18,953 nucleotides of DNA, from the UHGV virus genome UHGV-1695118; one strand, written 5' to 3'. Below are positions 1 through 18,874 of this stretch, one piece after another. The notes under the pieces were generated by a model. It saw nothing but the letters and a program-made list of their open reading frames with translations, was not told the origin of the DNA and searched no databases. Source of the stretch: a virus. Numbering within the stretch: position 1 is the stretch's first letter; the number at the start of each line of letters is the position of its first letter. The position numbers were made by a program, and so were the translations under genes.

Positions 1-713
1 CCACCACGGCTACGCCATTGGGTTAACGCCCACTCAAATACTAAAGTGATCTCATTCTCCGTATACGCTTTACGTGTTTTTGTTTCTGTCAGTAGTTCTA
101 CGAATGGCTTAGCATCACGACATTTGCATCCTGCCTTGTCGTTGTAGAAGGCAAGGCAACGCAATGCCGCTTCGTTTACGCCATCCTGATTGACCATTTT
201 TTGTTCATTTTCGACAATACACGAAGTGTATATATCTTTTTCTCTTTCTTTTTCTACTTCTAATTCTAATTCTAATTCTAATTCATGACCCTTTCCTGAC
301 CCGGTCATGACCCTATCATGACCTTTTTGTGTTGGATTGATTAACTTTTCTAATTTTAATTGCTCCTTCGCTGTGTTTATGGCGGCCCTGTAAGCGCTTT
401 TAGAAGTCATTGATTGGTCCAGCCTTTTCAATAACTTTAAACAAGTTATGTGGCCTTGAGAACATTCAAACAAACCAATTTCGATGAAGTATTTCATCAT
501 TTCTTCTATACGTTTTTCAGTAGATCCGACGTTTCGCGCAATTATTCTTGCGTCATGTCGTAGGTCAAAAGTTAGATTGTGCTGATCTACGTCATAAGTT
601 ATTAGTTCTAGGCAATACCAATAAAGCCCGTACCCTTCCAGGCCATAATCTAACAAAACGTTTTGAAGTTTTTCATCGCGGTTCGCATCGCTGTCATGCT
701 TAAACCACTTCAT
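1..713 (-). CDS. Replication initiator / replisome-organizer-like protein, N-terminal 237 codons (ORF continues beyond window position 1)
   Basis: Hand translation of the minus strand gives an uninterrupted frame from ATG (713-711) to the window edge. GGAGG lies 9 nt upstream. The N-terminus MKWFKHDSDANRDEKL resembles the conserved start of phage replisome-organizer proteins. Absent from the ORF track because there is no in-window stop. Confidence 0.6.
   Translation of the reverse strand, partial: MKWFKHDSDANRDEKLQNVLLDYGLEGYGLYWYCLELITYDVDQHNLTFDLRHDARIIARNVGSTEKRIEEMMKYFIEIGLFECSQGHITCLKLLKRLDQSMTSKSAYRAAINTAKEQLKLEKLINPTQKGHDRVMTGSGKGHELELELELEVEKEREKDIYTSCIVENEQKMVNQDGVNEAALRCLAFYNDKAGCKCRDAKPFVELLTETKTRKAYTENEITLVFEWALTQWRSRG
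252..324. repeat. Hexamer tract (TTCTAC/TTCTAA)x5 (252-281) followed by three direct copies of TCATGACC(C)T (283-292, 305-314, 316-324), inside the replication gene
   Basis: Read directly. The TCATGACC copies are spaced 22 and 11 bp apart. On the coding (minus) strand the tract encodes KGHELELELELEVEKEREKD. Confidence 0.8.
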
Positions 714-716
714 AGA

Positions 717-974
717 TCATCCCTCCGGCAACATCACTACATAGACATCACTGAATGCATCAAGACGACAAACAAATCCTTTATCCATTAACGCGGCGAA
801 GGCATCATGTACCGTATGAACAGGAAGTTCACACATTGCGGCTACTTCTTTGCGTGATGCATCATGTACCCGTCCTTTGTTATCTGCCTTTTCAGCCAGA
901 GCCATTAAGACAAGTTTTTGAATCGGGCTGTTAAGTTTTACGTTCCATACTTCATTCATCATGTGCATACTCAT
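717..974 (-). CDS. Small winged-helix HTH DNA-binding protein (HTH_36-like), first gene of the operon divergent from the repressor
   Basis: ORF-track frame 717..1052. ATG at 974 is preferred because AGGAG sits 7 nt upstream; the TTG start at 1052 is not excluded. The segment LNSPIQKLVLMALAEKADNKGRV...EVAAMCELPVHTVHDAFAALMDKGFV fits the winged-helix pattern of replication-initiator DNA-binding domains. The stop is 3 nt before the ATG of the downstream replication gene. Confidence 0.6.
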   Translation of the reverse strand: MSMHMMNEVWNVKLNSPIQKLVLMALAEKADNKGRVHDASRKEVAAMCELPVHTVHDAFAALMDKGFVCRLDAFSDVYVVMLPEG

Positions 975-1279
975 CGTGTTTTCTCCTATGGTTAGAGTGA
1001 ACGCGCGGGCGGGCATCCCATTAGCATTAGATAGCAGTGACTGACCGCTCAACAGATCCCGCCGTTGCGTGATATTTGTTTTTCGCTTCGCAGCGACACC
1101 GGATTTTTAAAGAGCTTAAGGTAAGTGCCTTTTTGTGCCTTCCGTTATCTTTTTCCTTGCGTCTTTGCAAGTATGGCCTTACCTTGTCTGCAAGTTTACA
1201 AAATGGAATTTTAAGATCAAGGCTTAAAATACACGTTTTGTGACTTGCATCAAACTTTTTGAGGTTATAGGGTAGCGAC
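975..1279. promoter_or_regulatory. Divergent promoter/operator region between the repressor gene and the leftward operon
   Basis: About 300 bp non-coding between divergent genes. Contains palindromes CTTGC-N6-GCAAG (1156-1171) and CTTG-N4-CAAG (1183-1194), a TGTGA-N6-TCAAA element (1239-1254), and possible back-to-back promoters (minus strand -35 TTGATG 1253-1248 and -10 TATTTT 1231-1226; plus strand -35 GTGACT 1240-1245). Promoter assignments are weak. Confidence 0.55.
1083..1117 (-). promoter_or_regulatory. Candidate nutR-like site (boxA GCTCTTTAAAAA plus boxB hairpin UCGCU-GCGA-AGCGA) on the leftward transcript
   Basis: The minus strand reads AAGCTCTTTAAAAATCCGGTGTCGCTGCGAAGCGAAAAAC. The boxA matches the rrn/lambda boxA consensus (GCTCTTTAA), followed 8 nt later by a 5-bp stem with a GNRA-type loop. 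Confidence 0.4.
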
Positions 1280-1927
1280 ATGAAAACAAAATGGTATGAC
1301 TTAGCAAAGCAGCTCATGCGGGCGCAGGGCATGAGCCAGGATTCACTAGCGGATCGCATGGGGATAACTAAAGGCGGCCTGTCACACTGGCTGAACGGTC
1401 GCCGCGAGCCAAATCTTGAAGATATTGCGCGGATTATGCGAGAGCTTGGTCGTCGGCAGTTCACTGTTACACATGATGGTATGGTCATTGATGATTCTGT
1501 TTCTAATACACTTCAGGCCGTGCCGCCGCGTGATTTAGGTAGTTACCCGGTTATTGACTGGAAGGACACAGTAAACAATATGGATGACGCAAGGCGTTCA
1601 GCATTACGACACGTTACGACTAGCGTTATTTGTTCAGATGACAGTTACTGGCTGGTTGCCAAAGGTGAATCAATGAACGCGCCGCAGGGGTTGAGCATCC
1701 CGGCGGGGACGATGATACTTGTTGACCCGCACGCGCCAGCTATTGACGGCAAACTGGTTATAGCCCAGCTTGAGGAAGGGCAGATACCGACGTTTAAACA
1801 GTTGATTATTGATGGAGGTCAAAGGCTTTTACGTTCGCTCAATCCGCTGTATCCGCCAATCCCTATGAATCCAGAATCAAAAATTATAGGCGTGGTGGTT
1901 GATGCGAAGATCGTAAACCTGCCATAA
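1280..1927 (+). CDS. cI: CI/c2-type phage repressor (N-terminal HTH, C-terminal S24 LexA-like autopeptidase domain)
   Basis: 215 aa. C-terminal half (SYPVIDW...GESMNAPQGLSIPAGTMILVDP...GKLVIAQLEE...KIIGVVVDAKIVNLP) is close to the remembered P22 c2 C-terminal domain, with Ser (GESM) and Lys (GKLV) catalytic residues. N-terminal HTH (SQDSLADRMGITKGGLSHWLNGRREP). Confidence 0.93.
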   Translation: MKTKWYDLAKQLMRAQGMSQDSLADRMGITKGGLSHWLNGRREPNLEDIARIMRELGRRQFTVTHDGMVIDDSVSNTLQAVPPRDLGSYPVIDWKDTVNNMDDARRSALRHVTTSVICSDDSYWLVAKGESMNAPQGLSIPAGTMILVDPHAPAIDGKLVIAQLEEGQIPTFKQLIIDGGQRLLRSLNPLYPPIPMNPESKIIGVVVDAKIVNLP

Positions 1928-1932
1928 ACATT

Positions 1933-1957
1933 AGCCGCCGGATGGCGGCTTTTCTTT
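1933..1957 (+). terminator. Rho-independent terminator after the repressor gene
   Basis: AGCCGCC-GGAT-GGCGGCT perfect 7-bp stem, 4-nt loop, then TTTCTTT, 6 nt after the repressor stop codon. Confidence 0.7.
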
Positions 1958-2050
1958 GCCTGGAAAACGCCAAAACGTAAACAGAAAACGTTATTTATTG
2001 TTTAAATATCAATAGCATATAAAATATTTTAAAAAAGTATACAAAATGGA

Positions 2051-2079: not shown

Positions 2080-2334
2080 GCGAGTCAAAGGAAGGTCGCA
2101 GGTAACAAAAGCAACTTCCTGGCACTTTAAAAATCAGGCTTAACACCTTGTCAACCGTGGAGTAACTCCCCGATGGGGGACCGAAAGCGGCACTGATAAC
2201 AAGGCGCATGGGGTGTTTAAAGCGTTACATCCCCCACGAAACCGCACGCAAGGCGACGAGTCAGCTTGCTTGGAGTGAGCAAGGTCACGCCGGGAACGGC
2301 GATGATTGCGGGATTAGTTGAAAGATGTTAAGCC

Positions 2335-2371
2335 GCTCATTAACAATCTGGTCAGCCGCTGGAAGTGCGGC
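2335..2371 (+). promoter_or_regulatory. Candidate nutL-like site (boxA GCTCATTAACAA plus boxB-like hairpin GCCGC-UGGAAGU-GCGGC)
   Basis: boxA matches rrn boxA GCTCTTTAACAA at 11 of 12 positions. A hairpin follows 8 nt downstream, about 55 nt upstream of the N-like start. Confidence 0.45.
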
Positions 2372-2747: not shown

Positions 2748-2870
2748 ATGGTTATTCTGGCGCTTCAATTCAAACTGGCGGTAGCGGAAATGCTTCATGA
2801 TGCCGAAATGTGGAGCGCCGCGAATAAAGCCTTATACATAGTGTTAACAGCGAAGGAGATTAAAGGGTGA
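2748..2870 (+). CDS. Hypothetical small protein (40 aa), translationally coupled to erf
   Basis: ATG at 2748 with GGAGG 7 nt upstream. Its stop TGA overlaps the GTG start of erf (GTGA). Below the ORF-track size cutoff. Confidence 0.4.
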   Translation: MVILALQFKLAVAEMLHDAEMWSAANKALYIVLTAKEIKG

Positions 2871-3508
2871 AAACAGAGTTACATAAAAAACTATGGACGA
2901 TTCAGCAAACGCTGAATGCGCCGAAAAATCAGCGTAATAACTTCGGTGGCTATAATTACAGGTCTGCGGAGGATATTTTAGAGGCGGTTAAACCACTGCT
3001 TCAAAATATCACACTGACTGTTAGTGATGAAATTGTCCTGATCGGCAATCGCTATTATGTGAAAGCAACGGCGACGCTAAGCGACGGTGAAGATGTAATA
3101 GCGGTAACTGCTTATGCCAGGGAGGAAGAAAGCAAGAAGGGTATGGACGCCAGCCAGCTAACAGGAGCAACATCAAGTTACGCGCGTAAATATGCTTTGA
3201 ACGGTTTATTCTGCATAGATGATGCTCGCGATCCTGATACTGATGCTTACGCGAAGCAGACAGGCCTGCAGCAGCGACAACAGAAAAACCCACCAAAACA
3301 ACAACCGCAGCAGAAGAAAGCGCCGCCAAATCCTGATGAAGTATTAGCACGTTTCTGTGATGCAGCAGCGAAAGCGCAGGACGCTAACAAGCTGCGTGAA
3401 ATATTTGGCAAATGCTGGAAATTACTACCGGAAGGATCGGAACATCGAATCAAGGCAAAAGATGTTTATGACATCCGGGTAGCAGAGCTTAACGGGGAGA
3501 TGTGTTAA
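2867..3508 (+). CDS. erf: Erf-family single-strand annealing recombinase
   Basis: 213 aa with GTG start and AAGGAG 8 nt upstream. Segments LNAPKNQ, YRSAEDILEAVKPLL, SDEIVLIGNRYYVKATAT and GATSSYARKY match remembered P22 Erf. Gln/Pro-rich C-terminal linker. Confidence 0.9.
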   Translation: MKTELHKKLWTIQQTLNAPKNQRNNFGGYNYRSAEDILEAVKPLLQNITLTVSDEIVLIGNRYYVKATATLSDGEDVIAVTAYAREEESKKGMDASQLTGATSSYARKYALNGLFCIDDARDPDTDAYAKQTGLQQRQQKNPPKQQPQQKKAPPNPDEVLARFCDAAAKAQDANKLREIFGKCWKLLPEGSEHRIKAKDVYDIRVAELNGEMC

Positions 3509-3927
3509 TGAGTTTAAATTCAATCACGCTGGGCGGGAATATCGGTAATGATATGGAGGTTCGCTACACACAAAACGGGAAAGCGATTGGTAGTTTTCCG
3601 TTAGCTGTAACGAATGGCTACGGCGATAATAAGCGGGTAATGTGGATCACTTGCCTGGTATTTGGCGAGCGTGCGGAAAAATTGGCGCCACATATCCGTA
3701 AGGGTGGAAAAATAGTGGTAAGCGGTCGCCTGGATGTTCGGCAATATGACCGGAACGACGGCACGAAGGGGACTGCGGTAGAAGTGGCGGTTAATGAATT
3801 TGAATTCATGAATGTTAACCAACAAGGCCAGCAGCAAGGACAGCAGCAGAAAGCGCCGCCGCAGCAGCAGAATAATAACGGGAATAATCCGCCTCAGATG
3901 GACTTCGACGACGATATTCCTTTTTAG
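3508..3927 (+). CDS. ssb: Single-stranded DNA-binding protein
   Basis: 139 aa from ATG 3508, which overlaps the erf stop (TAATG), with GGGGAGA upstream. OB-fold-like core, Gln-rich linker and the acidic C-terminal tip DFDDDIPF typical of bacterial and phage SSB. Confidence 0.93.
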   Translation: MSLNSITLGGNIGNDMEVRYTQNGKAIGSFPLAVTNGYGDNKRVMWITCLVFGERAEKLAPHIRKGGKIVVSGRLDVRQYDRNDGTKGTAVEVAVNEFEFMNVNQQGQQQGQQQKAPPQQQNNNGNNPPQMDFDDDIPF

Positions 3928-3943
3928 AATCAATGTGTTAGCT

Positions 3944-4222
3944 ATGAGTGATTATCTAAAACCGCCACCGCAACCACGAACAAAAGAGCAAGTATTAAAA
4001 GAAGCCCGCGATCGATTTGATCGCGGGCTTTTTTTATGCGGCACGGCAGCGGATCGAATGGCGAAAAGATTTAGTGACCTGTACGCGAAGCAAATCTGGT
4101 TTGACAACTGGCGAGCGAGTTCTTACCCGCTACAGAAAACTGATGATATGCAGTGGCCTGAATATGTTGATCCACGAATGCGCAAATATCGCGGGCGTAT
4201 GGGCAAGGTTATTAACGATTAA
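3944..4222 (+). CDS. Hypothetical protein (92 aa)
   Basis: In-frame ATG downstream of ssb within ORF-track frame 3812..4222; the upstream part of that frame overlaps ssb. No clear SD. Confidence 0.5.
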   Translation: MSDYLKPPPQPRTKEQVLKEARDRFDRGLFLCGTAADRMAKRFSDLYAKQIWFDNWRASSYPLQKTDDMQWPEYVDPRMRKYRGRMGKVIND

Positions 4223-4234: not shown

Positions 4235-4486
4235 ATGACAGCTACAACATTAAGCGAAAATAACGGGCGCGGTTTTCAGGGGACTGCGGAAACCTCAGAC
4301 GATGGTGATGTATTTGTCGAATTCGGTGGCGGTAACTATGAATTCGAAACGTCGGCGGGCTGGCACGATAAATGGCCTTTCCCGACGCGCAAGGAATTAA
4401 GCGATCGAAAAACATTTGGCGAAGATGCCGAACGCCTGGCGAATAATAAATGGATGGATAAATTTATTGCGGAGGCTGAAAAATGA
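4235..4486 (+). CDS. Hypothetical protein (83 aa)
   Basis: ORF-track ORF; GAGG 7 nt upstream of the ATG. Confidence 0.6.
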   Translation: MTATTLSENNGRGFQGTAETSDDGDVFVEFGGGNYEFETSAGWHDKWPFPTRKELSDRKTFGEDAERLANNKWMDKFIAEAEK

Positions 4487-4596
4487 GTTTTGCAAAAATT
4501 GCAGCATTGGCTGCGGCGGTGGCGATCGCGGCGCTATATCTTAGCTTATCGCTTTATATTACGGTGGCGATCATCAAGCTGATTACAACTATGTGA
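4483..4596 (+). CDS. Small hydrophobic peptide (37 aa, predicted single transmembrane helix)
   Basis: ATG overlaps the upstream stop (ATGA); GGAGG 7 nt upstream. Sequence MSFAKIAALAAAVAIAALYLSLSLYITVAIIKLITTM. Below the ORF-track cutoff. Confidence 0.5.
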   Translation: MSFAKIAALAAAVAIAALYLSLSLYITVAIIKLITTM

Positions 4597-4603
4597 GGCA
4601 ATC

Positions 4604-4726
4604 ATGAGAGTCAGTAAGGATATTGTGACGGTCGCGTTTTGCGTTATTTGTTTCCTGTTTGCGGTTGTGTTTTGTGGCGCACTTGCGGCAGTGATTAGCT
4701 TTATTGGTAAGGGGGTGATGTTATGA
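4604..4726 (+). CDS. Small hydrophobic peptide (40 aa, predicted transmembrane)
   Basis: ATG 4604 with GTGAGG upstream. Sequence MRVSKDIVTVAFCVICFLFAVVFCGALAAVISFIGKGVML. Stop overlaps the next start (ATGA). Confidence 0.5.
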   Translation: MRVSKDIVTVAFCVICFLFAVVFCGALAAVISFIGKGVML

Positions 4727-4995
4727 CTCTGTGGGATGCAAAAGAAGGTGATCTCGTTGTCTTGCCAGCATATCGTAGTGATCTCGGGCTGGTCGTACTG
4801 AATAAAACATGTAGCGACATTCAACGCCCGATCCTGGTTAGATACTTAGACGGCACGATGATCGAACCGCGTTTCTTCGACAAAGTTGAACTGAAGGCCC
4901 GCAATGTTCGCGTTAAGCCTTTCCGGGCTTATGTTGAAAATCACTGGCGTAAATTGTTCGCCGGACTGAATGGGATGTTCGGCGTATGGCTATAA
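4723..4995 (+). CDS. Hypothetical protein (90 aa)
   Basis: ORF-track ORF, translationally coupled to the upstream peptide gene. Confidence 0.55.
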   Translation: MTLWDAKEGDLVVLPAYRSDLGLVVLNKTCSDIQRPILVRYLDGTMIEPRFFDKVELKARNVRVKPFRAYVENHWRKLFAGLNGMFGVWL

Positions 4996-5177
4996 AATTA
5001 GTGAAGGTTAAACACCTGAAAGGCGGTGAAAGATTAATGTCATGGTGGGGACATGAATTTATTGCTACTGCCTTTCATTTCGGCCTAGGTGGTCAAGTAA
5101 CAATATTTGATGAAGATTACGACGAGGTGGGGCAATGGCATCTTGAGCAATATGTCGAGGTGTTAAATGAAAATTAA
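4986..5177 (+). CDS. Hypothetical protein (63 aa)
   Basis: ORF-track ORF overlapping the upstream stop; no clear SD. Confidence 0.4.
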   Translation: MAIKLVKVKHLKGGERLMSWWGHEFIATAFHFGLGGQVTIFDEDYDEVGQWHLEQYVEVLNEN

Positions 5178-5499
5178 ATTCCACAAAGCGTATGACGCTA
5201 ACACAAACAAGCTATCACTATTTATCGAATTCGAACGCCGGATCGTGGTAGCGCCTTGGTCGCGGCGCTTTAATGACGCCGCCGGGCGTAGACAATTCGC
5301 GGTCGATATGCTGTTACGCGGCTGCGGCCTTATGCGTCCGCTATCTGATTTAAAACGAATGATGCCGGGATCGTTCGGTCAGATTGATGAAATAGAAATA
5401 AGCCCGGAAGAACTGAAACGTGAGCGTGATTTATTCCTTTCAAGCGAAGGAAACCCGTTTAATTCAGAAACTGAAATGAAATGGCATCATCCACTATAA
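5167..5499 (+). CDS. Hypothetical protein (110 aa)
   Basis: ORF-track ORF; GAGGTG 4 nt upstream of the ATG. Confidence 0.55.
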   Translation: MKIKFHKAYDANTNKLSLFIEFERRIVVAPWSRRFNDAAGRRQFAVDMLLRGCGLMRPLSDLKRMMPGSFGQIDEIEISPEELKRERDLFLSSEGNPFNSETEMKWHHPL

Positions 5500-5510
5500 G
5501 GGTAAATATT

Positions 5511-6131
5511 ATGAACAATATCAAAACGGCTTATTCACTCGGCAGCGAAGGCATGTTAATTACTCGCTACACAGAGGACGCGAGCTTTCACGAAGTGGTA
5601 ACTAAGGATTATCACGAAGTTTTAAAAGATATGGAAGCAGGAGTGTATGACAGTGACTTAAATCTGGCGCTACAGATTGTTGATATTATGATGGATGCAT
5701 CAATCCGCGATTACGTGTCTTTAAGCATGGAAGAAAAAACATCGGTAGCGCGTTATGTGTTCTGCCTCACTTTCGTAAGACGCATGGAGGAGGAATTCGG
5801 ACGCGCACCAGTGCCGGAAGATGTTGATCCGCTCGCGTTCGGAAGTGCTGTTATTTTCCCGTTGAACAAGGATCGGCTTGGCAGTGTTTCACTGCATTCT
5901 ATGCGCGCCCTGATGAAAAAGGTCTTTGAGGTTAAGATGTTGCAGAAATTTATTGAGGAAGGACACGAAGAAGTGAACGTTAAGGCGTTTATTCCGGTGC
6001 TTTACGGAAATTTTGTTGGCGATGATATGCGCGCTAATGAATTAGGCGTACAGGCGGCTATAGCTACGCTTAACGAAGCAATGAAAAGTGCACAGCCTAT
6101 TCATGAACAGGAAAAACGTGTACTGCATTAA
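5511..6131 (+). CDS. Hypothetical protein (206 aa; alternative start 5481)
   Basis: ORF-track frame 5481..6131. ATG 5511 is preferred because AAGGG lies 8 nt upstream. No recognisable motif. Confidence 0.6.
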   Translation: MNNIKTAYSLGSEGMLITRYTEDASFHEVVTKDYHEVLKDMEAGVYDSDLNLALQIVDIMMDASIRDYVSLSMEEKTSVARYVFCLTFVRRMEEEFGRAPVPEDVDPLAFGSAVIFPLNKDRLGSVSLHSMRALMKKVFEVKMLQKFIEEGHEEVNVKAFIPVLYGNFVGDDMRANELGVQAAIATLNEAMKSAQPIHEQEKRVLH

Positions 6132-6133
6132 CA

Positions 6134-6153
6134 GCGTGATTGCGATCACATAA
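6134..6153. promoter_or_regulatory. Palindromic element GCGTGAT-TGCG-ATCACATAA (copy 1)
   Basis: Inverted repeat GTGAT-N4-ATCAC read directly. Nearly identical to the element at 9714-9733. Fits a CRP-like TGTGA-N6-TCACA pattern at 9 of 10 positions. Confidence 0.5.
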
Positions 6154-6230
6154 ATATACATTTTGTATTGTGATTGCATATCCGTTTTGTAAGCCGAAAT
6201 CAAAAGGTTTACGGTGCGGAGGAAAACAAG

Positions 6231-6449
6231 ATGGCCCGCGAATTAATGCTTTATTGTGTTGAGGGTGGCGTAGGTAGTAATGCCTATGTCGCCGGGAAAG
6301 GCTATCCAGCCGATGAAGTGCTTTCTAATATGCACTTCCGGGAAAATGAAAGCCGGGTGTCTGTGTGGAAACGGTGCATTGATGGTATTGAGGTTGTAAG
6401 TATCGAACGGTATTTAGGCACGTTTGATTACGGTGTTATTGAGGCTTAA
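6231..6449 (+). CDS. Hypothetical protein (72 aa)
   Basis: ATG 6231 within ORF-track frame 6174..6449; GGAGG 8 nt upstream. Confidence 0.55.
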   Translation: MARELMLYCVEGGVGSNAYVAGKGYPADEVLSNMHFRENESRVSVWKRCIDGIEVVSIERYLGTFDYGVIEA

Positions 6450-6451
6450 TT

Positions 6452-6544
6452 ATGGACGACACATTGTTTTATATGTGCTGTTGCTGGGGTTTTATTGCCT
6501 TATGTCTGTTTATCAGGTGGTTTATTGAATACCATATGAGGTGA
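6452..6544 (+). CDS. Possible 30-aa hydrophobic Cys-rich peptide
   Basis: ATG 6452 with GAGG 7 nt upstream. Sequence MDDTLFYMCCCWGFIALCLFIRWFIEYHMR. Very short, so weak. Confidence 0.3.
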   Translation: MDDTLFYMCCCWGFIALCLFIRWFIEYHMR

Positions 6545-6547
6545 GGC

Positions 6548-12495: not shown

Positions 12496-12754
12496 ATTAA
12501 AAGAGCATGAATTTAGGGATCTCATAAACGGAATAACCGATAAAGCTAGGATGTACTCAAATGCGCAACAGTTAAGGGCGGTTATAGTTACGGAATTAAT
12601 GAAATACATTGAGCCATGCGGACCAGGCGACGAAATGACTATGGATAAGGCCATCAAGCGCCGTTCGGCTGATTGGTCGGTTAGTAACACTGGATTAACC
12701 GGATACATTGAAGGCTATAACGACTGTTTACAGGATCATGGCAATGAAAAGTAA
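12485..12754 (+). CDS. Hypothetical protein (89 aa)
   Basis: ATG 12485 with AAGGTG upstream, within ORF-track frame 12452..12754. Confidence 0.55.
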   Translation: MKPKLKEHEFRDLINGITDKARMYSNAQQLRAVIVTELMKYIEPCGPGDEMTMDKAIKRRSADWSVSNTGLTGYIEGYNDCLQDHGNEK

Positions 12755-12959
12755 CCGCAAGCGCCTTGTAAGGGCATACGATAAAGCATTAAAGGCTTTT
12801 GATGATCTGCGACACAATAAGCGCCAGCGCCGCAAATGGGCGCGTATGCTTGTTTATGAGTGGCATTATTCTGATGCTTTCATGGAAAGTGCGCCGCTAT
12901 TAACACAGGAACAAGCCGACGAAGTAGCTAACGATAACGTTTATTATATGATGTGGTGA
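12744..12959 (+). CDS. Hypothetical basic protein (71 aa)
   Basis: ATG 12744 with AGGA 8 nt upstream, within ORF-track frame 12708..12959. Confidence 0.5.
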   Translation: MKSNRKRLVRAYDKALKAFDDLRHNKRQRRKWARMLVYEWHYSDAFMESAPLLTQEQADEVANDNVYYMMW

Positions 12960-12963
12960 TAAT

Positions 12964-13329
12964 ATGCAAATAATCATTGATTACCTTTGCCACGCTGCAA
13001 ATACGCTTTTCGGTTTTTATCAGCAACCACTCCTGAAAGAATGGGACGAAATGCTTAATGACATCCTCGACAAAGGGTTAATAATGGAATTCGGGGAGCT
13101 AACAATCAAATTTAATTACGAAGGCAAAGAATATGACATATGGGTAGGCAACAGATGGTATGCATACGGGCATATTTATTCAATTGGCGGTAAATACATT
13201 AAACGAAGTCAGGAATTTAGACCGCGCTTCCGCACAATGCGACGACTGCATGACCTGCATATGAAGATATTTGGAGATCAGGAGGCACGGGAATTATTCA
13301 AAATTTACGGGGGTAAATCATGGAGCTAA
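12964..13329 (+). CDS. Hypothetical protein (121 aa)
   Basis: ORF-track ORF; GGTGA upstream. Confidence 0.6.
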   Translation: MQIIIDYLCHAANTLFGFYQQPLLKEWDEMLNDILDKGLIMEFGELTIKFNYEGKEYDIWVGNRWYAYGHIYSIGGKYIKRSQEFRPRFRTMRRLHDLHMKIFGDQEARELFKIYGGKSWS

Positions 13330-13550
13330 AAATCTGGCAGGCTATCGACGTAGTTGATAATGAATTAACAATGTTTGCCACTGACGGAAAGCGCGTGGTT
13401 ATCGCTACATGGACGCATAACCATGATGATATTGTTTTTCGTCGCAAGGCTGCGGAGTGGCTTTTCTCTGACAACGGCTACACGATGAATATCATGCAGC
13501 TTTCCAGAATGAAGGATGAAAAGCTGGTTGATAGTTACACAACTGCATAG
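13320..13550 (+). CDS. Hypothetical protein (76 aa)
   Basis: ORF-track ORF; GGGGG 6 nt upstream. Confidence 0.55.
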   Translation: MELKIWQAIDVVDNELTMFATDGKRVVIATWTHNHDDIVFRRKAAEWLFSDNGYTMNIMQLSRMKDEKLVDSYTTA

Positions 13551-13560
13551 TGGGGCAAAT

Positions 13561-13794
13561 ATGTGTATCTATGAACACAAGCGGGATAAAACCCGCTTTT
13601 TTGTTCGTGCTGGCGTGGCTTACCAGTATCACGACTGCGGATATATCGAGGCGCTTGCTTACGATCTGGATTTCGAACAAGAAAAAGAATGGTTTGATTT
13701 CAAGATTTACCGGAAGCGCAAGCCAACGCGTGACGAACGACACGCTATCCGGGACTTTTTAATCAGCATAGACCGCTGGGAGGCAGACGAATGA
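13561..13794 (+). CDS. Hypothetical protein (77 aa)
   Basis: ATG 13561 with GTGGGG upstream, within ORF-track frame 13516..13794. Confidence 0.5.
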   Translation: MCIYEHKRDKTRFFVRAGVAYQYHDCGYIEALAYDLDFEQEKEWFDFKIYRKRKPTRDERHAIRDFLISIDRWEADE

Positions 13795-14018
13795 AAGTTA
13801 AATTCTTGCACGATCACGGATACCCGTCATTGAAACAGGTTGTTGGTAAGGTCGTTAATGTCGTTCATAGCGATGATATTGCTTGCATGATTAATGGTGC
13901 TGATCTCATTGCTGCTGGTGCTGATGACCATTACATCAATCCGGCGTGGTCGTATACGTTCAGCCTGGGCGACTTCGTGGGCGATAAGGGGCGCGGGCTG
14001 CAAGTAGTCGAGGGTTAA
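13791..14018 (+). CDS. Hypothetical protein (75 aa), possible distant member of the tandem paralog family
   Basis: ORF-track ORF with ATGA coupling. Weak similarity to the downstream paralogs (ADDHYINPAWSY versus the shared YI-DD-G-W motif). Confidence 0.5.
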   Translation: MKVKFLHDHGYPSLKQVVGKVVNVVHSDDIACMINGADLIAAGADDHYINPAWSYTFSLGDFVGDKGRGLQVVEG

Positions 14019-14022
14019 TATT

Positions 14023-14271
14023 ATGGACGTTTACGAGGATGTTTACCTGGCACCTTCATCTTATAGCTTTTATTTTCTGATAAATGGAAAGGCTTATAGA
14101 TGCGATTCTGACGGGGTGAGAGAAGAAAAGCTGTTTTGCACTAAAGGATACCTGGATGATTTGGTTTTTGCCGGGATATTTCGTAAACGCCCGGCTAACC
14201 TGGAAGAAGAAATGTTGATTGAGGTAATTAAAAATGAAAATAAGGGTAAGTTATTTCCGGGCGAAAGATAA
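14023..14271 (+). CDS. Hypothetical protein (82 aa)
   Basis: ORF-track ORF; GAGGG upstream. Confidence 0.55.
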   Translation: MDVYEDVYLAPSSYSFYFLINGKAYRCDSDGVREEKLFCTKGYLDDLVFAGIFRKRPANLEEEMLIEVIKNENKGKLFPGER

Positions 14272-14485
14272 GGCAACAGGAAAGCAGATTGCGATCCTGG
14301 TTAACGAGGCGCAGTACATGTTTGTCCTTCAGCCGTGGTGTGTTGTAGATCTTAACGACAACTGTCGCCGCCACGCTGCGCGAAGTGCTGTTGGTATGAA
14401 AGGCTGGCAACCGCGCGACATGGAAAAATATTGTGAATGGAAATTGGTGGCAAAATACACGGTCGATTATAAAGGGGTTTTCTGA
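14234..14485 (+). CDS. Hypothetical protein (83 aa)
   Basis: ORF-track ORF overlapping the previous gene by 38 nt; GAGG 9 nt upstream. Confidence 0.5.
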   Translation: MKIRVSYFRAKDKATGKQIAILVNEAQYMFVLQPWCVVDLNDNCRRHAARSAVGMKGWQPRDMEKYCEWKLVAKYTVDYKGVF

Positions 14486-14709
14486 TGTTTGTAAAATGTA
14501 TAAAGTCTCGTTTCCCTAATCTTTTTGTGGTTGATGAGATTTACGACATAGAAACGCTAATAAGCAGAACTAACGATATTCAGTACATTTATGATGAAGA
14601 TGGCGATCCGTGGTTTTTTTATAACGATCTCAATGGTAGCGGATTCGTTGATGGCGTTGGCGGTAATGGTGTGCCAGTTGCGCTATTTATAAATGCAAAT
14701 AAGGAATGA
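14485..14709 (+). CDS. Tandem paralog family member A (74 aa)
   Basis: Sequence MFVKCIKSRFPNLFVVDEIYDIETLISRTNDIQYIYDEDGDPWFFY aligns with the three following ORFs. ATG overlaps the upstream stop. Confidence 0.6.
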   Translation: MFVKCIKSRFPNLFVVDEIYDIETLISRTNDIQYIYDEDGDPWFFYNDLNGSGFVDGVGGNGVPVALFINANKE

Positions 14710-14714
14710 ATATC

Positions 14715-14921
14715 ATGTATGTTAGATGCACTGAATCAAAATCATCATGCTTTGAGGTTGGCGGAATATATACCGTAGCTCACCTGACTGGTGATGAACT
14801 TAACACCCAATACATTAAAGACGACCACGGAGACGCGTGGCGCTATTGGGATTGTTACGCGCGTGGACACGTTGCCAGCCAGTTCAGTACGGAACCGATC
14901 GCGCGTTTTGTTAAGTGGTGA
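14715..14921 (+). CDS. Tandem paralog family member B (68 aa)
   Basis: Sequence MYVRCTESKSSCFEVGGIYTVAHLTGDELNTQYIKDDHGDAWRYW. ATG 14715 with AAGGA 9 nt upstream, within ORF-track frame 14706..14921. Confidence 0.6.
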   Translation: MYVRCTESKSSCFEVGGIYTVAHLTGDELNTQYIKDDHGDAWRYWDCYARGHVASQFSTEPIARFVKW

Positions 14922-14930
14922 GGTAGTGTT

Positions 14931-15170
14931 ATGAGACAGAATCAGAGATACCAGTGCACATACTCACGATGCAGCGCGTTTTTTAAGAATGGCAAGATCT
15001 ACGAAGTCGGAGCGGCATTGGTTGACGCAAAGGATCAGGAATATATTCACGCCATTACTGACGACCAGGGCCAGTTATGGCGATTTTATAAGATGGGATG
15101 TGGAACTGCGCTTGTTTATGCGCGGGCTTGTGGTGGTGCTTTTGCTGCGTTTTCGTATGTAGGTGCATAA
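14931..15170 (+). CDS. Tandem paralog family member C (79 aa)
   Basis: Segment YQCTYSRCSAFFKNGKIYEVGAALVDAKDQEYIHAITDDQGQLWRFY. GAGGT upstream. Confidence 0.6.
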   Translation: MRQNQRYQCTYSRCSAFFKNGKIYEVGAALVDAKDQEYIHAITDDQGQLWRFYKMGCGTALVYARACGGAFAAFSYVGA

Positions 15171-15171
15171 A

Positions 15172-15390
15172 ATGATTTTAACGTGTAACGAATCGAGATT
15201 AGGTTGTTTTGAGGAAGGAGCACAGTACACGGCTGAAAAACCGATGGGATTGTCTCCTAAATTTCCGTTTATCGTCGTGACTGACACTTACGGTCACTTA
15301 TGGTATGCAGGGCCGCTAGGCGGTATTGGTCGTTATGTTGTCCGTAGTTTGGATGGGGCGATGAAGGTTACTTTTACGGAAGAAACGTAA
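15172..15390 (+). CDS. Tandem paralog family member D (72 aa)
   Basis: Sequence MILTCNESRLGCFEEGAQYTAEKPMGLSPKFPFIVVTDTYGHLWYAG. ATG 15172 within ORF-track frame 15163..15390 (which uses a GTG start). Confidence 0.55.
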   Translation: MILTCNESRLGCFEEGAQYTAEKPMGLSPKFPFIVVTDTYGHLWYAGPLGGIGRYVVRSLDGAMKVTFTEET

Positions 15391-15416
15391 ATGTGATCTG
15401 TATTACAAGGTTTACG

Positions 15417-15450
15417 AAATGGCATTGTTTCGGCAGTGCCATTTTGTTAT
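15417..15450 (+). terminator. Rho-independent terminator-like hairpin after the paralog array
   Basis: AAATGGCATTG-TTTCGG-CAGTGCCATTT: 11-bp stem with one G-U pair and a 6-nt loop, followed by TGTTAT. Confidence 0.5.
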
Positions 15451-15488
15451 AAAGAAGCTGAAGAGAGAACGATGCGGAGGGTAGAAAA

Positions 15489-15767
15489 ATGAAACGCTGG
15501 ATTAACAAAGAAGTCGAATCTCGCTTAAACGCATTTTGGGAGATGGTGGAGAAAGAAGACCCAGCACACGCTGCAAGCCCTTACCTGAACAACATCGAAT
15601 ATCACTACATTGCAGCAAACAACGCGGAGTTCGAAGAAGAAGGTGGAGCCGACAAGTTCGCACAAAGCAACGCATTCAACAACGCAAACGAAATGATGAT
15701 GGCAGTCATCGAACAGGCAGAGGAAGACTACGAATGCAAATCACTTGAATTCGCACGTATGGCATAA
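15489..15767 (+). CDS. Acidic small protein (92 aa)
   Basis: ORF-track ORF with GGAGGG upstream. Strongly Asp/Glu-rich (EFEEEGGADKF, EQAEEDYE). Confidence 0.6.
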   Translation: MKRWINKEVESRLNAFWEMVEKEDPAHAASPYLNNIEYHYIAANNAEFEEEGGADKFAQSNAFNNANEMMMAVIEQAEEDYECKSLEFARMA

Positions 15768-15777
15768 GGGGGAAACC

Positions 15778-15918
15778 ATGAACGCTAACGCTAAATATCC
15801 GGCCTGGGTTTTCGAACTGTACGCAAGATACTTTGAATTACTGGCACAAGGTGAAGAAGCATTAAGCATTGACGAGTACGCGGAGTGCTTAGGGTTTAAA
15901 GGAGACGAAGAAGCATAA
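15778..15918 (+). CDS. Hypothetical small protein (46 aa)
   Basis: ATG 15778 with AAGGGGG 5 nt upstream. Sequence MNANAKYPAWVFELYARYFELLAQGEEALSIDEYAECLGFKGDEEA. Below the ORF-track cutoff. Confidence 0.45.
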   Translation: MNANAKYPAWVFELYARYFELLAQGEEALSIDEYAECLGFKGDEEA

Positions 15919-15923
15919 AACAC

Positions 15924-15939
15924 GGGGCCGGATGGCCCC
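15924..15939. other. Perfect hairpin GGGGCC-GGAT-GGCCCC in an intergenic spacer
   Basis: 6-bp GC stem with a GGAT loop. No U-tract on the plus strand; a moderately T-rich tract follows on the minus strand. Confidence 0.4.
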
Positions 15940-15961
15940 ATCAAATCAGAAGGGTGTAATC

Positions 15962-16261
15962 ATGAAAAGCGCTAAATTTATTGCTTGCTGTTTTGTTGAA
16001 GTTCCTAACGATGATGTTTTCTGTAATTATGAATTTAAAGACAGCTTAGGCAGATCTCACATTGTTGTTGGCAAACGCGGCGACTGGTTATATATAACCG
16101 ATGACGATATGATTTTTACCAGAAATCAACTTTTTCACATCCACTCAGTAAATAATTATGCGCCAGTTGCCGCTATATCCGTAATGGATATGCACGCTAA
16201 GAAATGGATTGAAAAGGACGATATTAACGAAGCGCGTAGCTTACCTGGTGCGGAGTTTTAA
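15962..16261 (+). CDS. Hypothetical protein (99 aa)
   Basis: ATG 15962 with AAGGGTG upstream, within ORF-track frame 15932..16261. Contains GDWLYITDDD, loosely like the paralog motif. Confidence 0.55.
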   Translation: MKSAKFIACCFVEVPNDDVFCNYEFKDSLGRSHIVVGKRGDWLYITDDDMIFTRNQLFHIHSVNNYAPVAAISVMDMHAKKWIEKDDINEARSLPGAEF

Positions 16262-16264
16262 TTT

Positions 16265-16519
16265 ATGGAAATAATCAAAATATGGCGCGGCAACAGTAAG
16301 GCTGACGGTGAGTTTTGCCGCGTCGTTCAATTCGTAAATTATGGTAGGTTTTACGAGCTACCTTATGACAAAAGGAAAGATGATTTCTATTTAAGCGAGT
16401 CAATCCCGGTGCACAGAAAAATAAAGGCGCTTAGGGGGTTGTTGCGAAGTGGTTTTTATTCTTGCCCTAACCCATTAAACAATCCTGAACTGGTAGCTAT
16501 TTTTTACGAAGGAGAATAG
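16265..16519 (+). CDS. Hypothetical protein (84 aa)
   Basis: ORF-track ORF; GGAG 9 nt upstream. Confidence 0.5.
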   Translation: MEIIKIWRGNSKADGEFCRVVQFVNYGRFYELPYDKRKDDFYLSESIPVHRKIKALRGLLRSGFYSCPNPLNNPELVAIFYEGE

Positions 16520-16522
16520 ACA

Positions 16523-16846
16523 ATGTCTAAATTTATCAGCGTTAAAGTTTTCCGTGGCACTTTACCGAACGAAGAAAGATTAGGACAATTTGCCGGGCAA
16601 CCTAGTGCATGTTTCCGTGTAGCCACTGAAGACGATGCGCATGTTAAATGCTTCCACGTATCGGAACCGCCTTTTAATGCAGACCATCTTGAAGACCCGG
16701 ATAGAATTAAAAGCCTAGTATCTGCCTATCTGATGTTCCAGGGTATCGCTGATATGGAAGTGGAATTGCTTGGCGCTGAACTGGTGGCAGAATACAAAAT
16801 TACTGAAGCAGAAAGCGGAGAATCAAAAATTGAGCGCATCAAATAA
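16523..16846 (+). CDS. Hypothetical acidic protein (107 aa)
   Basis: ORF-track ORF with AAGGAG 8 nt upstream. Confidence 0.65.
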   Translation: MSKFISVKVFRGTLPNEERLGQFAGQPSACFRVATEDDAHVKCFHVSEPPFNADHLEDPDRIKSLVSAYLMFQGIADMEVELLGAELVAEYKITEAESGESKIERIK

Positions 16847-17081
16847 ACCTTACAAAATCCGTTGTAAAGGTGAATACCCTGGCTTTACGACTGGTTGCGA
16901 ATACTTGGGCCACATTGGATGCGGCCCTTTCGGTGAGTTAGGGATGAATACGCTGGACGACGACGGCGACAGCCGGACGCTTGATCTTGATTCTGATGAT
17001 TTCGAATACATCCCGCCAGTAACTTACCGTGCCGTTGATGATTTCCTGGCTGAACATGAAGACGAGGGCGATGATGATTGA
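16830..17081 (+). CDS. Cys-containing protein with a highly acidic C-terminus (83 aa from TTG 16830; ORF-track frame starts at 16770)
   Basis: Start uncertain: both candidates are TTG codons; GGAG lies 9 nt upstream of 16830. C-terminus DDDGDSRTLDLDSDDFEYIPP...AEHEDEGDDD. Confidence 0.4.
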   Translation: MSASNKPYKIRCKGEYPGFTTGCEYLGHIGCGPFGELGMNTLDDDGDSRTLDLDSDDFEYIPPVTYRAVDDFLAEHEDEGDDD

Positions 17082-17268
17082 ATGCCTTATAGCTGTGATT
17101 GTTTTGCTTTATATCGCTGGCGCTATCCTGATGTCTTGTTTTATTAAGTTTAGCGGAGCTGAACCTGGCGGCCTTGAGATTCCTTTTTGGCCTGTGACTG
17201 TGTTTATCGCTTTCTTCGACGCTACGGCAGGGCAGATCAATCGAGCTATTAAGGAGCGCAAGAAATGA
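17074..17268 (+). CDS. Small membrane protein (64 aa)
   Basis: ATG 17074 with GAGGG upstream, within ORF-track frame 17029..17268. Hydrophobic stretch IECLIAVIVLLYIAGAILMSCFI. Confidence 0.5.
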   Translation: MIECLIAVIVLLYIAGAILMSCFIKFSGAEPGGLEIPFWPVTVFIAFFDATAGQINRAIKERKK

Positions 17269-17444
17269 TTGAAGATGGGGTGTACGCAACAGTAGTAGAC
17301 GGGCTGTTTTACCGCGTAGAAGGTGATGATATTCGCATCCGCGTTGGCGGTGGTGAGTGGGTAGCGCCAATCATTAAGACGGCGCGAGAAACAATTAAAA
17401 TATTTCTTGATGCTGGTGAACTGGTGAGGGTTAGCGACCTATGA
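17265..17444 (+). CDS. Hypothetical small protein (59 aa)
   Basis: ATG overlaps the upstream stop (ATGA); AAGGAG 8 nt upstream. Sequence MIEDGVYATVVDGLFYRVEGDDIRIRVGGGEWVAPIIKTAREITKIFLDAGELVRVSDL. Below the ORF-track cutoff. Confidence 0.5.
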   Translation: MIEDGVYATVVDGLFYRVEGDDIRIRVGGGEWVAPIIKTARETIKIFLDAGELVRVSDL

Positions 17445-17617
17445 ACGAGATCGAAGATGGTATCTATTTGCATAAGGTATTTAACATCGTCTATTTACTT
17501 AAAGGTAATAAGGTGATGATAAGACCTGATGACGATCCACATTGGGAATCAAGCGACATGGATCGGCGGCATATGCAAATGTTGCTTGATAACGGCCTGA
17601 TATATAGAAAGCCGTAA
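17441..17617 (+). CDS. Hypothetical small protein (58 aa), possible paralog of the preceding gene
   Basis: ATGA coupling. Sequence MNEIEDGIYLHKVFNIVYLLKGNKVMIRPDDDPHWESSDMDRRHMQMLLDNGLIYRKP shares an IEDG(V/I)Y start with the upstream ORF. Confidence 0.45.
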   Translation: MNEIEDGIYLHKVFNIVYLLKGNKVMIRPDDDPHWESSDMDRRHMQMLLDNGLIYRKP

Positions 17618-17624
17618 GCCGTAT

Positions 17625-17653
17625 TTGTAGGGCGTAAACAAACAGATTAAAAT
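17625..17653 (+). promoter_or_regulatory. Candidate promoter (-35 TTGTAG, 17-bp spacer, -10 TAAAAT) upstream of the lysis genes; possible late PR'-like promoter
   Basis: Read directly; lies 25-50 nt upstream of a strong terminator. Identified by eye only. Confidence 0.35.
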
Positions 17654-17680
17654 ATTTCCTAACAATGCGAAATTGTAATT

Positions 17681-17711
17681 ACCCGGCCCCGCGCCGGGTT
17701 TTTGCTTTGTT
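17681..17711 (+). terminator. Rho-independent terminator immediately upstream of the holin gene (tR'-like position)
   Basis: ACCCGGC-CCCGC-GCCGGGT 7-bp GC-rich stem followed by TTTTGCTTTGTT. Confidence 0.7.
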
Positions 17712-17723
17712 GGAGGAAAATCT

Positions 17724-17924
17724 ATGTTCGACAAAATACGGGGGGCGTGCGCGTATGTGGCTGGGGCCGTAACTGCTTTTTTCGGCGCGATAACCATCAA
17801 TGACATTGCCGTCTTTGTGGGTATCTTATCAACCGTAGGCACATTTGCCGTTAACTATTACTTCAAATCACAGGAGAACAAGCGAGCGCAAGAGGAACAC
17901 GACGCGCGAATGGGGAATAAGTAA
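17724..17924 (+). CDS. Holin, class II pinholin-like (two predicted transmembrane helices)
   Basis: 66 aa with GGAGG 7 nt upstream. Two hydrophobic helices and a charged C-terminal tail. Immediately precedes the SAR endolysin, as in phage 21. Confidence 0.75.
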   Translation: MFDKIRGACAYVAGAVTAFFGAITINDIAVFVGILSTVGTFAVNYYFKSQENKRAQEEHDARMGNK

Positions 17925-18416
17925 ATGATTAGCCAATCGCTGAAAAACAAGATTATTGCTGCGGCGGCTGGTGGGGCGATCGCTATTGCGGCTGTGATGG
18001 TTAAACCATTAGAAGGCGTGGAGTACGATCCGTATCGTGATGCTATCGGTGTATGGACTGTATGTTATGGTCACACCGGAAAAGACATTATGCTGGGTAA
18101 AACTTACACGCAATCAGAATGCGATGCTTTGTTAAACAAAGATCTCCACAAAACCGCAAAAGCGATTGGCCCATATATTAAAGTCGAAATATCAGATTTT
18201 ACCCGCGCGGCGCTTTATTCATTCGCCTATAACGTAGGCGCTACCAACTTCAAAACATCAACATTATTGAAGCTACTCAATGACGGCAAGAAATCGGAGG
18301 CGTGCGCACAGCTTAAACGCTGGATATATGCTGGTGGTAAGCAGTGGCAAGGGTTAATTAACCGCCGTGATGTTGAATATGCCGTTTGCGAATGGGGTGA
18401 AACATGGACAAGGTGA
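17925..18416 (+). CDS. R: SAR endolysin (GH24 lysozyme with N-terminal signal-anchor-release domain)
   Basis: 163 aa. Gly/Ala-rich N-terminal segment [17 protein letters not shown], then [34 protein letters not shown]...[20 protein letters not shown]...[12 protein letters not shown], close to remembered phage 21 R. Confidence 0.92.
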
Positions 18417-18874
18417 AGACGTTAATCATCGCCGTTGTTGTTTGCATTATTGCCGGGCTTACCGCCGTAACGTGTTATTACCAGGGTGAGGCGGCAAGGT
18501 TACAGGAAGAAGTCACGGTGACGAAAGGCGCACTAAAAACAGCAAGTAACACTATCCAGCAGATGAAGGAGCGAAACGCCGAACTGTCAAAACTTGATAA
18601 GAGGTATCACGATGAGATTAAAGCTATCAGATCTGACATTGCCGATCTTCGCGCTGGCATTGATAGCGGTGCTATCAGGTTGCACGTCAACGCCGAGCCA
18701 GTGTACGTGCACGACGCCACCGGAACCGCCAGCAGCATTAATGGAGCCACCTGTAGACTTACTGCCAGTGCTCAATCAAATTATCTATCCCTCAGAGAAC
18801 AACTAAAAGAGAAAGACGCGAAGATCACCGGATTACAGGACTACATCAAAACGCAGTGCATACGCAAAGAATAA
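18404..18874 (+). CDS. Rz: Rz-like i-spanin
   Basis: 156 aa. N-terminal transmembrane helix ([16 protein letters not shown]) and coiled-coil periplasmic domain. Overlaps the endolysin 3' end. Confidence 0.8.
18612..18806 (+). CDS. Rz1: Rz1-like o-spanin lipoprotein, nested in the +1 frame inside Rz
   Basis: 64 aa from ATG 18612 with AGAGG 7 nt upstream, within ORF-track frame 18594..18806. Signal peptide with lipobox LSGC, then a Pro-rich mature region. Confidence 0.75.
   Translation: MRLKLSDLTLPIFALALIAVLSGCTSTPSQCTCTTPPEPPAALMEPPVDLLPVLNQIIYPSENN

Follow-up and report, generated by a model that had tools for sequence, protein, structure and literature searches.

What places the N-like gene, the recombination genes, the nin genes, a Q-type antiterminator gene and the lysis genes of a lambda-like phage on one strand, behind the repressor gene? 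The question is raised by an 18,953-nucleotide stretch of the virus genome UHGV-1695118 (hereafter the window, meaning the whole stretch of DNA that was analysed). A preliminary description made from the letters alone had interpreted this layout as a module order rearranged with respect to lambda and P22. The analysis reported here indicates that the odd gene order is the correct reading of a known phage lineage, and is neither an artefact nor a new kind of element. The window very probably comes from a temperate Escherichia coli siphophage of the mEpimmI group, whose archetype is mEp021, and covers its immunity, early and lysis region. The members of this group were described as Nus-dependent 'non-lambdoid' coliphages, with 48 genomes of conserved architecture, and a new family was suggested for them (Negrete-Mendez et al. 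2025, PMC11893012). We hold with high confidence that the gene order of the window is the published, conserved and normal architecture of these phages, and is as such already known.

Strand layout of the window and its relatives

Pfam and PHROG searches served as an independent check of what each gene is and on which strand it lies. The open reading frame (ORF) list and the composition profile of the window revealed a single strand switch near 1000-1280; the GC skew is negative to the left of about 1000-1300, changes sign there and rises monotonically rightward. On the minus strand only two genes are supported, a small winged-helix gene (717-977) and a replication initiator gene, which exits the left end of the window and of which the N-terminal 237 amino acids are encoded at 1-713. 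The plus strand carries the CI-type repressor gene (1280-1927; Pfam HTH_3 and Peptidase_S24), the N-like antiterminator gene gp17 (2427-2717; phrog_271, 1.3e-13), the recombination module (2867-4222) with erf (2867-3508; Pfam ERF, 1.5e-41), ssb (3508-3927; Pfam SSB, 1.4e-23) and the anti-RecBCD gene abc2 (3944-4222; phrog_656), the modification module (7409-9692), the nin genes (9852-11052) with ninG (10043-10648; Pfam NinG, 1e-66) and rusA (10645-11052; Pfam RusA, 8e-15), the Q-type late antiterminator gene (11231-11959; Pfam Antiterm PF03589, 1.2e-30) and the lysis cassette (17724-18874), in which holin (17724-17924), lysozyme (17925-18416) and Rz (18404-18874) were recognised by the Pfam families Phage_holin_2_3, Phage_lysozyme and Phage_lysis.

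These assignments are in agreement with the preliminary description, which had placed the N-like gene, erf, ssb, the modification genes, ninG, rusA, Q and the lysis genes on the plus strand and had seen only a small helix-turn-helix (HTH) gene and the initiator gene diverge from the repressor gene and leave the window leftward. Two of its labels have to be softened. A plus-strand gene does occupy the ninF position (9852-10028), but it matches only an unnamed PHROG and owes its name solely to the mEp021 annotation. The small 'HTH' gene is indeed a minus-strand gene, but its label is weaker than had been stated, as the product aligns to the N-terminal 89 positions of phrog_4617 (3e-22), corresponding to the N-terminal domain of O-like initiators, and is not a recognisable Cro. 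The longer minus-strand ORFs elsewhere (1027-1488 and 16885-17370) overlap family-supported plus-strand genes and are unannotated in the relatives.

By megablast, the window matched seven phages (mEp010, MagusPhagus, mEp044, mEp554, mEp515, mEp013 and mEp021) with 87-89% identity over 70-86% of its length. Of 5426 complete E. coli genomes, 35 had prophages matching the window, with identities of up to 93.6%, and in all 43 IMG/VR contigs found with gp17 the 13 marker genes kept identical order and strand wherever the contig extends. The window itself is identical to no genome examined; it is put together like a mosaic, its segments resembling different members of the group with identities of 81-99%. 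The annotated contexts of mEp021, mEp010 and an E. coli prophage inserted in abgT (CP030768) were examined for what lies on either side. Leftward, these relatives carry the winged-helix gene, the initiator gene, and genes for a zinc-ribbon protein and a DnaB-type helicase, ninB and a small gene that overlaps int at its end (labelled HTH in mEp021 only), with int itself at the host junction; rightward, they carry the repressor gene, gp17, erf, the methyltransferase genes, the nin genes, Q, the lysis genes and the terminase, portal, head and tail genes. The integrase and attachment sites of the group and its siphovirus structural genes, present in the closest relatives, fall outside the window. 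Synteny and similarity, a Rep021-like repressor, the Gp17 arginines and three predicted nut sites all assign the window to the mEpimmI group. As an observation apart, the gene at the portal position of the CP030768 prophage (37141-38511) is called 'anti-CBASS protein Acb1 family protein' in RefSeq, and the homologous position of mEp021 is annotated as portal protein; this naming conflict is probably an annotation transfer issue.

An assembly artefact or chimera, in which two unrelated pieces would have been joined near the repressor gene, found no support (the mosaicism of the window versus any single relative is normal for temperate phages) and is practically impossible in view of the repressor/winged-helix and methyltransferase/ninF junctions, which are colinear in 7 isolated (plaque-purified) phages, 35 complete E. 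coli chromosomes and 43 IMG/VR contigs. It is also extremely improbable that the replication genes on the left are part of another element next to the phage, such as a satellite or a second prophage, and that the rightward genes are those of a canonical phage devoid of its replication module. Such a reading could be built on the exchange of the N-terminal part of the initiator gene and the winged-helix gene as a cassette between relatives (171-979 is unmatched in mEp021 and mEp010). However, in mEp021 and mEp010 the DNA of purified virions is a single 54-kb molecule with int and both operons, the leftward one for replication and the rightward one, int of the prophage is located at the abgT host junction, outside the replication genes, the leftward nut site contains the same 17-nt block as nutR2, and no other replication genes were found rightward in the annotations of mEp021 and the prophage. 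Both readings are excluded.

Orientation of the early region relative to lambda and P22

The window proteins were compared with the lambda and P22 genomes by tblastn. The repressor matched lambda cI and P22 c2 and the erf product matched P22 erf, all of these targets being located on the minus strand; ninG, Q, lysozyme and Rz matched plus-strand genes of lambda/P22. As the repressor and erf genes share one strand with ninG, Q and the lysis genes in the window, the relative orientation truly differs from that of lambda and P22. The rearranged module order proposed in the preliminary description is thereby supported, as an arrangement that is not new (PMC11893012). The identities amounted to 53% with P22 for erf, 51-53% with lambda and P22 for ninG, and 33% for Q with both lambda Q and P22 gp23.

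The P22 and lambda early proteins were also mapped onto mEp021 and the E. coli prophage. In both, the P22 succession erf (−), c2 (−), gp18 (+), gp12 (+), ninB (+) is found as ninB (−), gp12-like (−), gp18-like (−), c2-like (+), erf (+), and ninG, gp23 and Rz (in mEp021 also the gp19 lysozyme) keep the order and strand that they have in P22. Because the marker order is reversed with every strand flipped, this is the signature of a single inversion. The layout, conserved within the group, can formally be described as that of lambda/P22 after a single inversion of the early region in its entirety, which extends from the far end of the N operon to ninB. The dividing line within the nin region runs between ninB and ninF/ninG, and the right-hand breakpoint falls in the window, at 9692-9852, where it coincides with a terminator, a duplicated promoter-like block and nutR2. 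The difference of map between these phages and lambda/P22 is in this way reduced to one inversion with a defined junction.

That a single inversion is also what happened historically seems moderately probable. Two findings weigh against it: the identities to P22 and lambda are just 31-57%, and stepwise shuffling of modules could yield the same map; and the integrase gene is also flipped with respect to P22, yet lies outside the inverted block. Both are compatible with an independent assembly of modules, without any lambda-like ancestor, the resemblance to a single inversion being then a coincidence of the maps. Independent assembly would also be in line with the structural genes of the group, unrelated to lambda according to the authors (PMC11893012), and with the mosaicism common in these phages. 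It remains an unlikely explanation in view of the five markers reversed with all strands flipped against three to four unchanged, of the nin genes being split exactly between ninB and ninF/ninG (per the P22 nin gene list), and of the duplicated control unit at the junction.

Early and late control sites

The repressor is 95% (94.9%) identical to Rep021 of mEp021, 40% to P22 C2 and 34% to lambda CI; Rep021 confers immunity (PMC11893012). Its gene is followed on the plus strand by an intrinsic terminator (1933-1956), t1 of mEp021, which is annotated there as TERM_1 at the same position, and t1, t2 and t5 have been demonstrated experimentally in mEp021 (PMC11893012). The gp17 product is 93% (92.7%) identical to mEp021 Gp17 and its translation contains an arginine-rich motif (R17, R19, R20, R21 and R24), arginines 17, 19, 20 and 24 being reported as conserved in Gp17 (PMC11893012). 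By tblastn it had no similarity to lambda N or P22 gp24. No gp17 relatives were detected in a scan of one-genome-per-species contigs, nor in phage records beyond the seven group members, and in these scans the mEpimmI architecture was not found outside E. coli. The nut sites of mEp021 were reportedly defined by Valencia-Toxqui et al. in 2023. Gp17 is described as an N-like, Nus-dependent antiterminator acting on nutL, upstream of the repressor gene, nutR1, upstream of gp17, and nutR2, downstream of the methyltransferase gene, and nutL and nutR2 are the most similar pair of sites according to the authors (PMC11893012).

A 17-nt boxA-plus-spacer block (GCWCTTTAAAAATCMGG) occurs in three exact copies in the window against 0 expected, each directed along local transcription: 1115-1099 (−), 2122-2138 (+) and 9791-9807 (+). 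The first belongs to a nutL-like site (1083-1115, minus strand), with the boxA block GCTCTTTAAAAATCCGG read from 1115 to 1099 and a boxB hairpin TCGCT-GCGA-AGCGA from 1096 to 1083. The position of this site is conserved in 46 genomes, comprising mEp021, mEp010, the E. coli prophage and the IMG/VR loci. The third copy belongs to a nutR2-like site (9790-9822, plus strand) with boxA TGCTCTTTAAAAATCCGG and boxB CGCT-GAAA-TGCG, and the hairpins predicted after these two copies have GNRA-like or A-rich loops. Before gp17, a unit at 2335-2371 (plus strand) combines GCTCATTAACAATCTGG with a boxB hairpin GCCGC-TGGAAGT-GCGGC and ends 56 nt upstream of the gene. The second 17-nt copy (2122-2138, plus strand, GCACTTTAAAAATCAGG), which has no adjacent canonical boxB, belongs to a segment of 213 nt, located after the rightward promoter and before nutR1 (2080-2335), that only some relatives share, as it is found in the window and most of them and is missing in those of the mEp021 type. 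Because the relatives without this segment have the 2335-2371 unit alone before gp17, that unit was taken as nutR1, and the 2122 copy therefore as an extra boxA-like block. The positions of the three predicted nut sites agree with the published ones, and the features of N-type antitermination are present: a small protein with an N-terminal arginine-rich motif, and three sites of boxA plus a short hairpin in transcript orientation. It counts against these assignments that they rest on position and motif. The fold energies of the three nut regions do not differ from those of shuffles (z near zero), which speaks neither for nor against the sites, the hairpins being too short for this test.

Promoters were judged by conservation across genomes, a consensus scan being used only for a site with 10/12 consensus matches. 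This sigma-70-like element, TTGACT-17-TATATT (2051-2079), is invariant in the relatives, lies 3' of the repressor-gene terminator and is a good candidate for the 'PL-like' promoter that the preliminary description had noticed behind the repressor gene. It is abutted by a 16-mer (AAGTATACAAAATGGA, 2035-2050), and the two make up a putative rightward early promoter region at 2035-2079 on the plus strand. A candidate leftward early promoter (1193-1220, minus strand) consists of TTGATC (1220-1215), 16 nt and TAAACT (1198-1193), and overlaps the same conserved 16-mer, AAGTTTACAAAATGGA in plus-strand spelling (1192-1207). In the 46 genomes its −35, late spacer and −10 block are conserved and the first 8 bases of the spacer are variable. 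The consensus scan does not favour these promoter calls: it found 25 sites in the window versus 35.9 in shuffles, that is fewer, and it misses both the leftward element and the junction element described below, whose hexamers are weak (TTGATC/TAAACT and TTGTTC/TATACT).

The 16-mer (AAGTWTACAAAATGGM) is present in all three early control regions, at 1192-1207, 2035-2050, 9692-9707 and 9761-9776: one copy stands before nutL, one abuts the rightward −35 and an inverted pair precedes nutR2. Both it and the boxA 17-mer hold their positions in the 46 genomes and are absent from lambda and P22. A role of the 16-mer as repressor operator is a guess, and it speaks against it that the sequence is non-palindromic, which is unusual for a CI-type operator; neither dyad symmetry nor a similarity to P22 operators consistent across the sites was found. 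A diverged inverted pair of the 16-mer was also observed at 15408-15450, upstream of the ORF at 15489, as a terminator-like hairpin (AAATGGCA...TGCCATTT). Rfam gave no match in the window.

At the methyltransferase/ninF junction, the plus-strand element 9692-9743 comprises the 16-mer AAGTTTACAAAATGGC (9692-9707) and a long hairpin (9706-9739) followed by TTTT. This terminator is t4 of mEp021 (TERM_4 in its annotation), and in the 46 genomes its stem is kept and its loop variable. It is followed on the same strand by a promoter-like element before the nin-Q block (9748-9776), made of TTGTTC (9748-9753), 16 nt and TATACT (9770-9775), which overlaps the inverted 16-mer copy at 9761-9776. The junction and leftward units are homologous (31/37 positions in the promoter block, 17/17 in boxA), and the two blocks follow a common pattern in the 46 genomes: the −35-like hexamer is conserved, the next 6-8 bases are variable, and the rest of the spacer and the −10-like hexamer are conserved. 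A third promoter before ninF is accordingly conceivable, with a likelihood that we place slightly under one half.

Comparable weight, again a little short of an even chance, is given to a model with a single transcript, in which no promoter exists at the junction, Q is reached by gp17-dependent read-through from 2051-2079 and nutR2 reloads or reinforces antitermination after the terminator. The weak junction hexamers, which fall below the report level of the scan, the start that would lie only about 8 nt before boxA, and the published account, which gives nut sites and terminators and no promoter there (PMC11893012), are compatible with this model. It does not account for the homology of the 37-nt junction block to the leftward block, with a similar pattern of conservation in the 46 genomes, nor for the location of this promoter-like block directly 3' of a conserved terminator.

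If the junction block is a promoter, the region would contain three early units, each with a promoter and a nut site; of these, experiments in the literature back the nut sites. The junction copy of the leftward unit suggests how an N/Q cascade may have stayed functional once the early region had been inverted.

The late control block was sought upstream of the lysis genes and next to Q. On the plus strand at 17648-17704, a −10 element TAAAAT (17648-17653), 7 nt, a −10-like element AACAAT (17661-17666) and a terminator stem (17681-17699) with a T-run form a candidate late promoter/qut/terminator. The block is non-coding, unique in the window and located directly upstream of holin, and it is conserved behind at least 4 different upstream genes, with a varying terminator loop. 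Its layout matches that of PR' in lambda and P22 (TAAATT, 6 nt, AACGAT), the P22 terminator lying within about 60 nt, and the terminator t5, demonstrated in mEp021 (PMC11893012), is homologous to the one found here before holin. The lambda-like alternative, a late promoter immediately following Q, was rejected: the DNA at this place is coding and shows in the relatives the variation typical of coding sequence, and the comparison with them revealed no conserved promoter/terminator block immediately 3' of Q. From these data, the late promoter that depends on Q is with reasonable probability placed at 17648-17704, at a distance of 5.7 kb from the Q gene. As it would lie just before holin, the approximately 22 genes between Q and holin would be early genes. 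Neither the third promoter nor the late promoter 5.7 kb from Q is described in PMC11893012. We propose tentatively, with less than even confidence in the whole, that the region contains three N-controlled early units, the nin-Q promoter being a paralog of the leftward promoter/nut unit at the breakpoint of an ancestral inversion and the 16-mer perhaps an operator, together with a late promoter distant from Q and about 22 early small genes in between.

Neighbouring genes, proposed working and comparison with known phages

The initiator fragment was assigned by Pfam Lin1244_N (3.8e-11) and by PHROGs (replication initiation / replisome organizer), and it is 97% identical to a Lin1244-domain protein of the CP030768 prophage. 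Beyond the window, the C-terminal part of the homologous replication protein of mEp021 and of this prophage matches P22 gp18. Tandem Repeats Finder detected repeats inside the initiator gene at 235-327, namely AT-rich hexamers at 235-284 (TCTTTT x3.5 and TTCTAA x5.5) and, beside them, four 11-nt iteron-like repeats (TTCATGACCCT) at 282-327; the stretch codes for an ELELELE linker. It appears to be a candidate origin inside the initiator gene, comparable to the lambda ori in O. The winged-helix gene, first of the leftward operon and so in the cro position, has no Pfam match and is 32% identical to mEp021 gp14, annotated as 'MarR-like HTH'. It was rejected as a Cro analog, since its matches are to the N-terminal domains of initiators and its identity between members that have their immunity in common is only 32%. 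The DNA at 171-979 has no match in mEp021 or mEp010, yet is 99% identical to the CP030768 prophage; the C-terminal part of the initiator is shared, and the N-terminal domain with the repeats and the winged-helix gene differ. The segment has the appearance of an origin-recognition cassette that was exchanged among phages of a single immunity group.

The abc2 coding sequence contains, at 4002-4030, a strong GC-rich hairpin of 12 pairs with a T-run after it, at a place predicted as terminator T4 in the mEp010 record. The accessory small genes at 4235-7399 have mEp021 homologs in the same order, and the last of them (7166-7399) encodes a protein 96% identical to mEp021 Ipe, the 'inducer of pleiotropic effects' that the authors link to the hemolytic phenotype of lysogens (PMC11893012). 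The modification module consists of Dam (7409-7948; Pfam, 9e-52), DUF6378 (7923-8453; Pfam), a membrane protein (8434-8937) and a second DNA methyltransferase (8934-9692; phrog_757, 1e-86), and a match to phrog_4899 also falls in it. Downstream of Q, the roughly 22 small genes at 11959-17617, without assigned function, have PHROG matches, include paralog arrays and are all on the plus strand in the relatives. The first, overlapping the Q stop codon (11959-12147), has about 67 codons in most relatives and 34 here, owing to a frameshift by a longer A-run (about 12031-12038) that is of intermediate length in the relative L015; it is either a pseudogene or a homopolymer sequencing error. Three tandem paralogs of phrog_31142 (14485, 14706 and 14931) stand in the array 14485-15390, adjoined by an ORF at 15163 without PHROG match, and two of phrog_15318 (17265 and 17441) in the array 17265-17617. 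In the lysis cassette, an Rz1-like lipoprotein ORF is embedded in Rz (about 18612-18806), with a lipobox LSGC in its translation.

The region could work as follows. The CI-type repressor gene would lie between two outward-facing lytic promoters. From the leftward one, transcription would pass nutL into the winged-helix gene and the initiator gene, with its apparent own origin, and then into the helicase gene and ninB beyond the window. From the rightward one, behind the repressor-gene terminator, it would pass nutR1 and gp17 and proceed through erf-ssb-abc2, the accessory genes and the two methyltransferase genes, then through the terminator and nutR2 into ninF-ninG-rusA-Q and the approximately 22 small genes, and would finally reach the candidate Q-type late promoter/terminator that directly precedes holin-lysozyme-Rz and the morphogenesis genes. 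At the three nut sites, RNA polymerase would become resistant to terminators through Gp17 and host Nus factors, as known for mEp021 from the work of others and as predicted here from the sequence. The inversion would have taken the cro-side promoter and nut site away from Q, and a copied unit before ninF would keep Q early and antiterminated; this fits the authors' remark on the likeness of nutL and nutR2. Beyond PMC11893012, the present analysis adds an explicit single-inversion map with its junction, the promoter-like duplicate with the shared 16-mer, and the distance between Q and the site where it probably acts. It should aid genome annotation in E. coli, where about 0.6% of the complete genomes contain prophages of this kind.

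Compared with the mEpimmI group, the window has the same gene order and strands, nut positions, terminators at the annotated positions and Ipe homolog. It differs by the Lin1244-type N-terminus of the initiator and a diverged winged-helix gene, by the 213-nt insert with the extra boxA-like block before gp17, and from mEp021 by a Q-holin accessory region of 5.7 kb versus about 2 kb.

With P22 it shares erf (53%), a C2-type repressor (40%), ninG (51%), gp23/Q (33%), lysozyme and Rz, to which its relatives add a DnaB-type helicase (57%), ninB (51%) and the gp18 C-terminus. Common to both would also be antitermination of the N and Q types, as predicted for the window, and a short late leader in which a −10-like element and a terminator immediately precede the lysis genes. 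In contrast to P22, the erf...c2...18-12-ninB block is inverted relative to ninG-23-lysis, the late promoter candidate is not beside Q, there are three predicted nut sites, and neither cro nor c1 is recognisable.

The phages of the mEpimmI group do not hybridise with lambda DNA probes and form no viable hybrids with lambda (PMC11893012). Lambdoid phages being defined by a lambda-like module order and viable hybrids, the window departs from this definition by its orientation, and its relatives by the hybrids. Unlike in lambda, the nin-Q-lysis genes of the window follow the N/recombination operon and not the replication operon, the recombination genes are of the Erf type instead of Exo/Bet, and there may be three N-controlled early units where lambda has two. 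As in lambda, a CI-type repressor gene is co-oriented with the N-type gene behind it and diverges from the replication genes, a candidate origin lies in the initiator gene, ninB, ninG, Q and Rz homologs occur, and the late promoter candidate has a −10-like pause element. Homologs and predicted sites of N and Q antitermination and a CI-type repressor are present, with the dependence on Nus factors known from the literature on the relatives.

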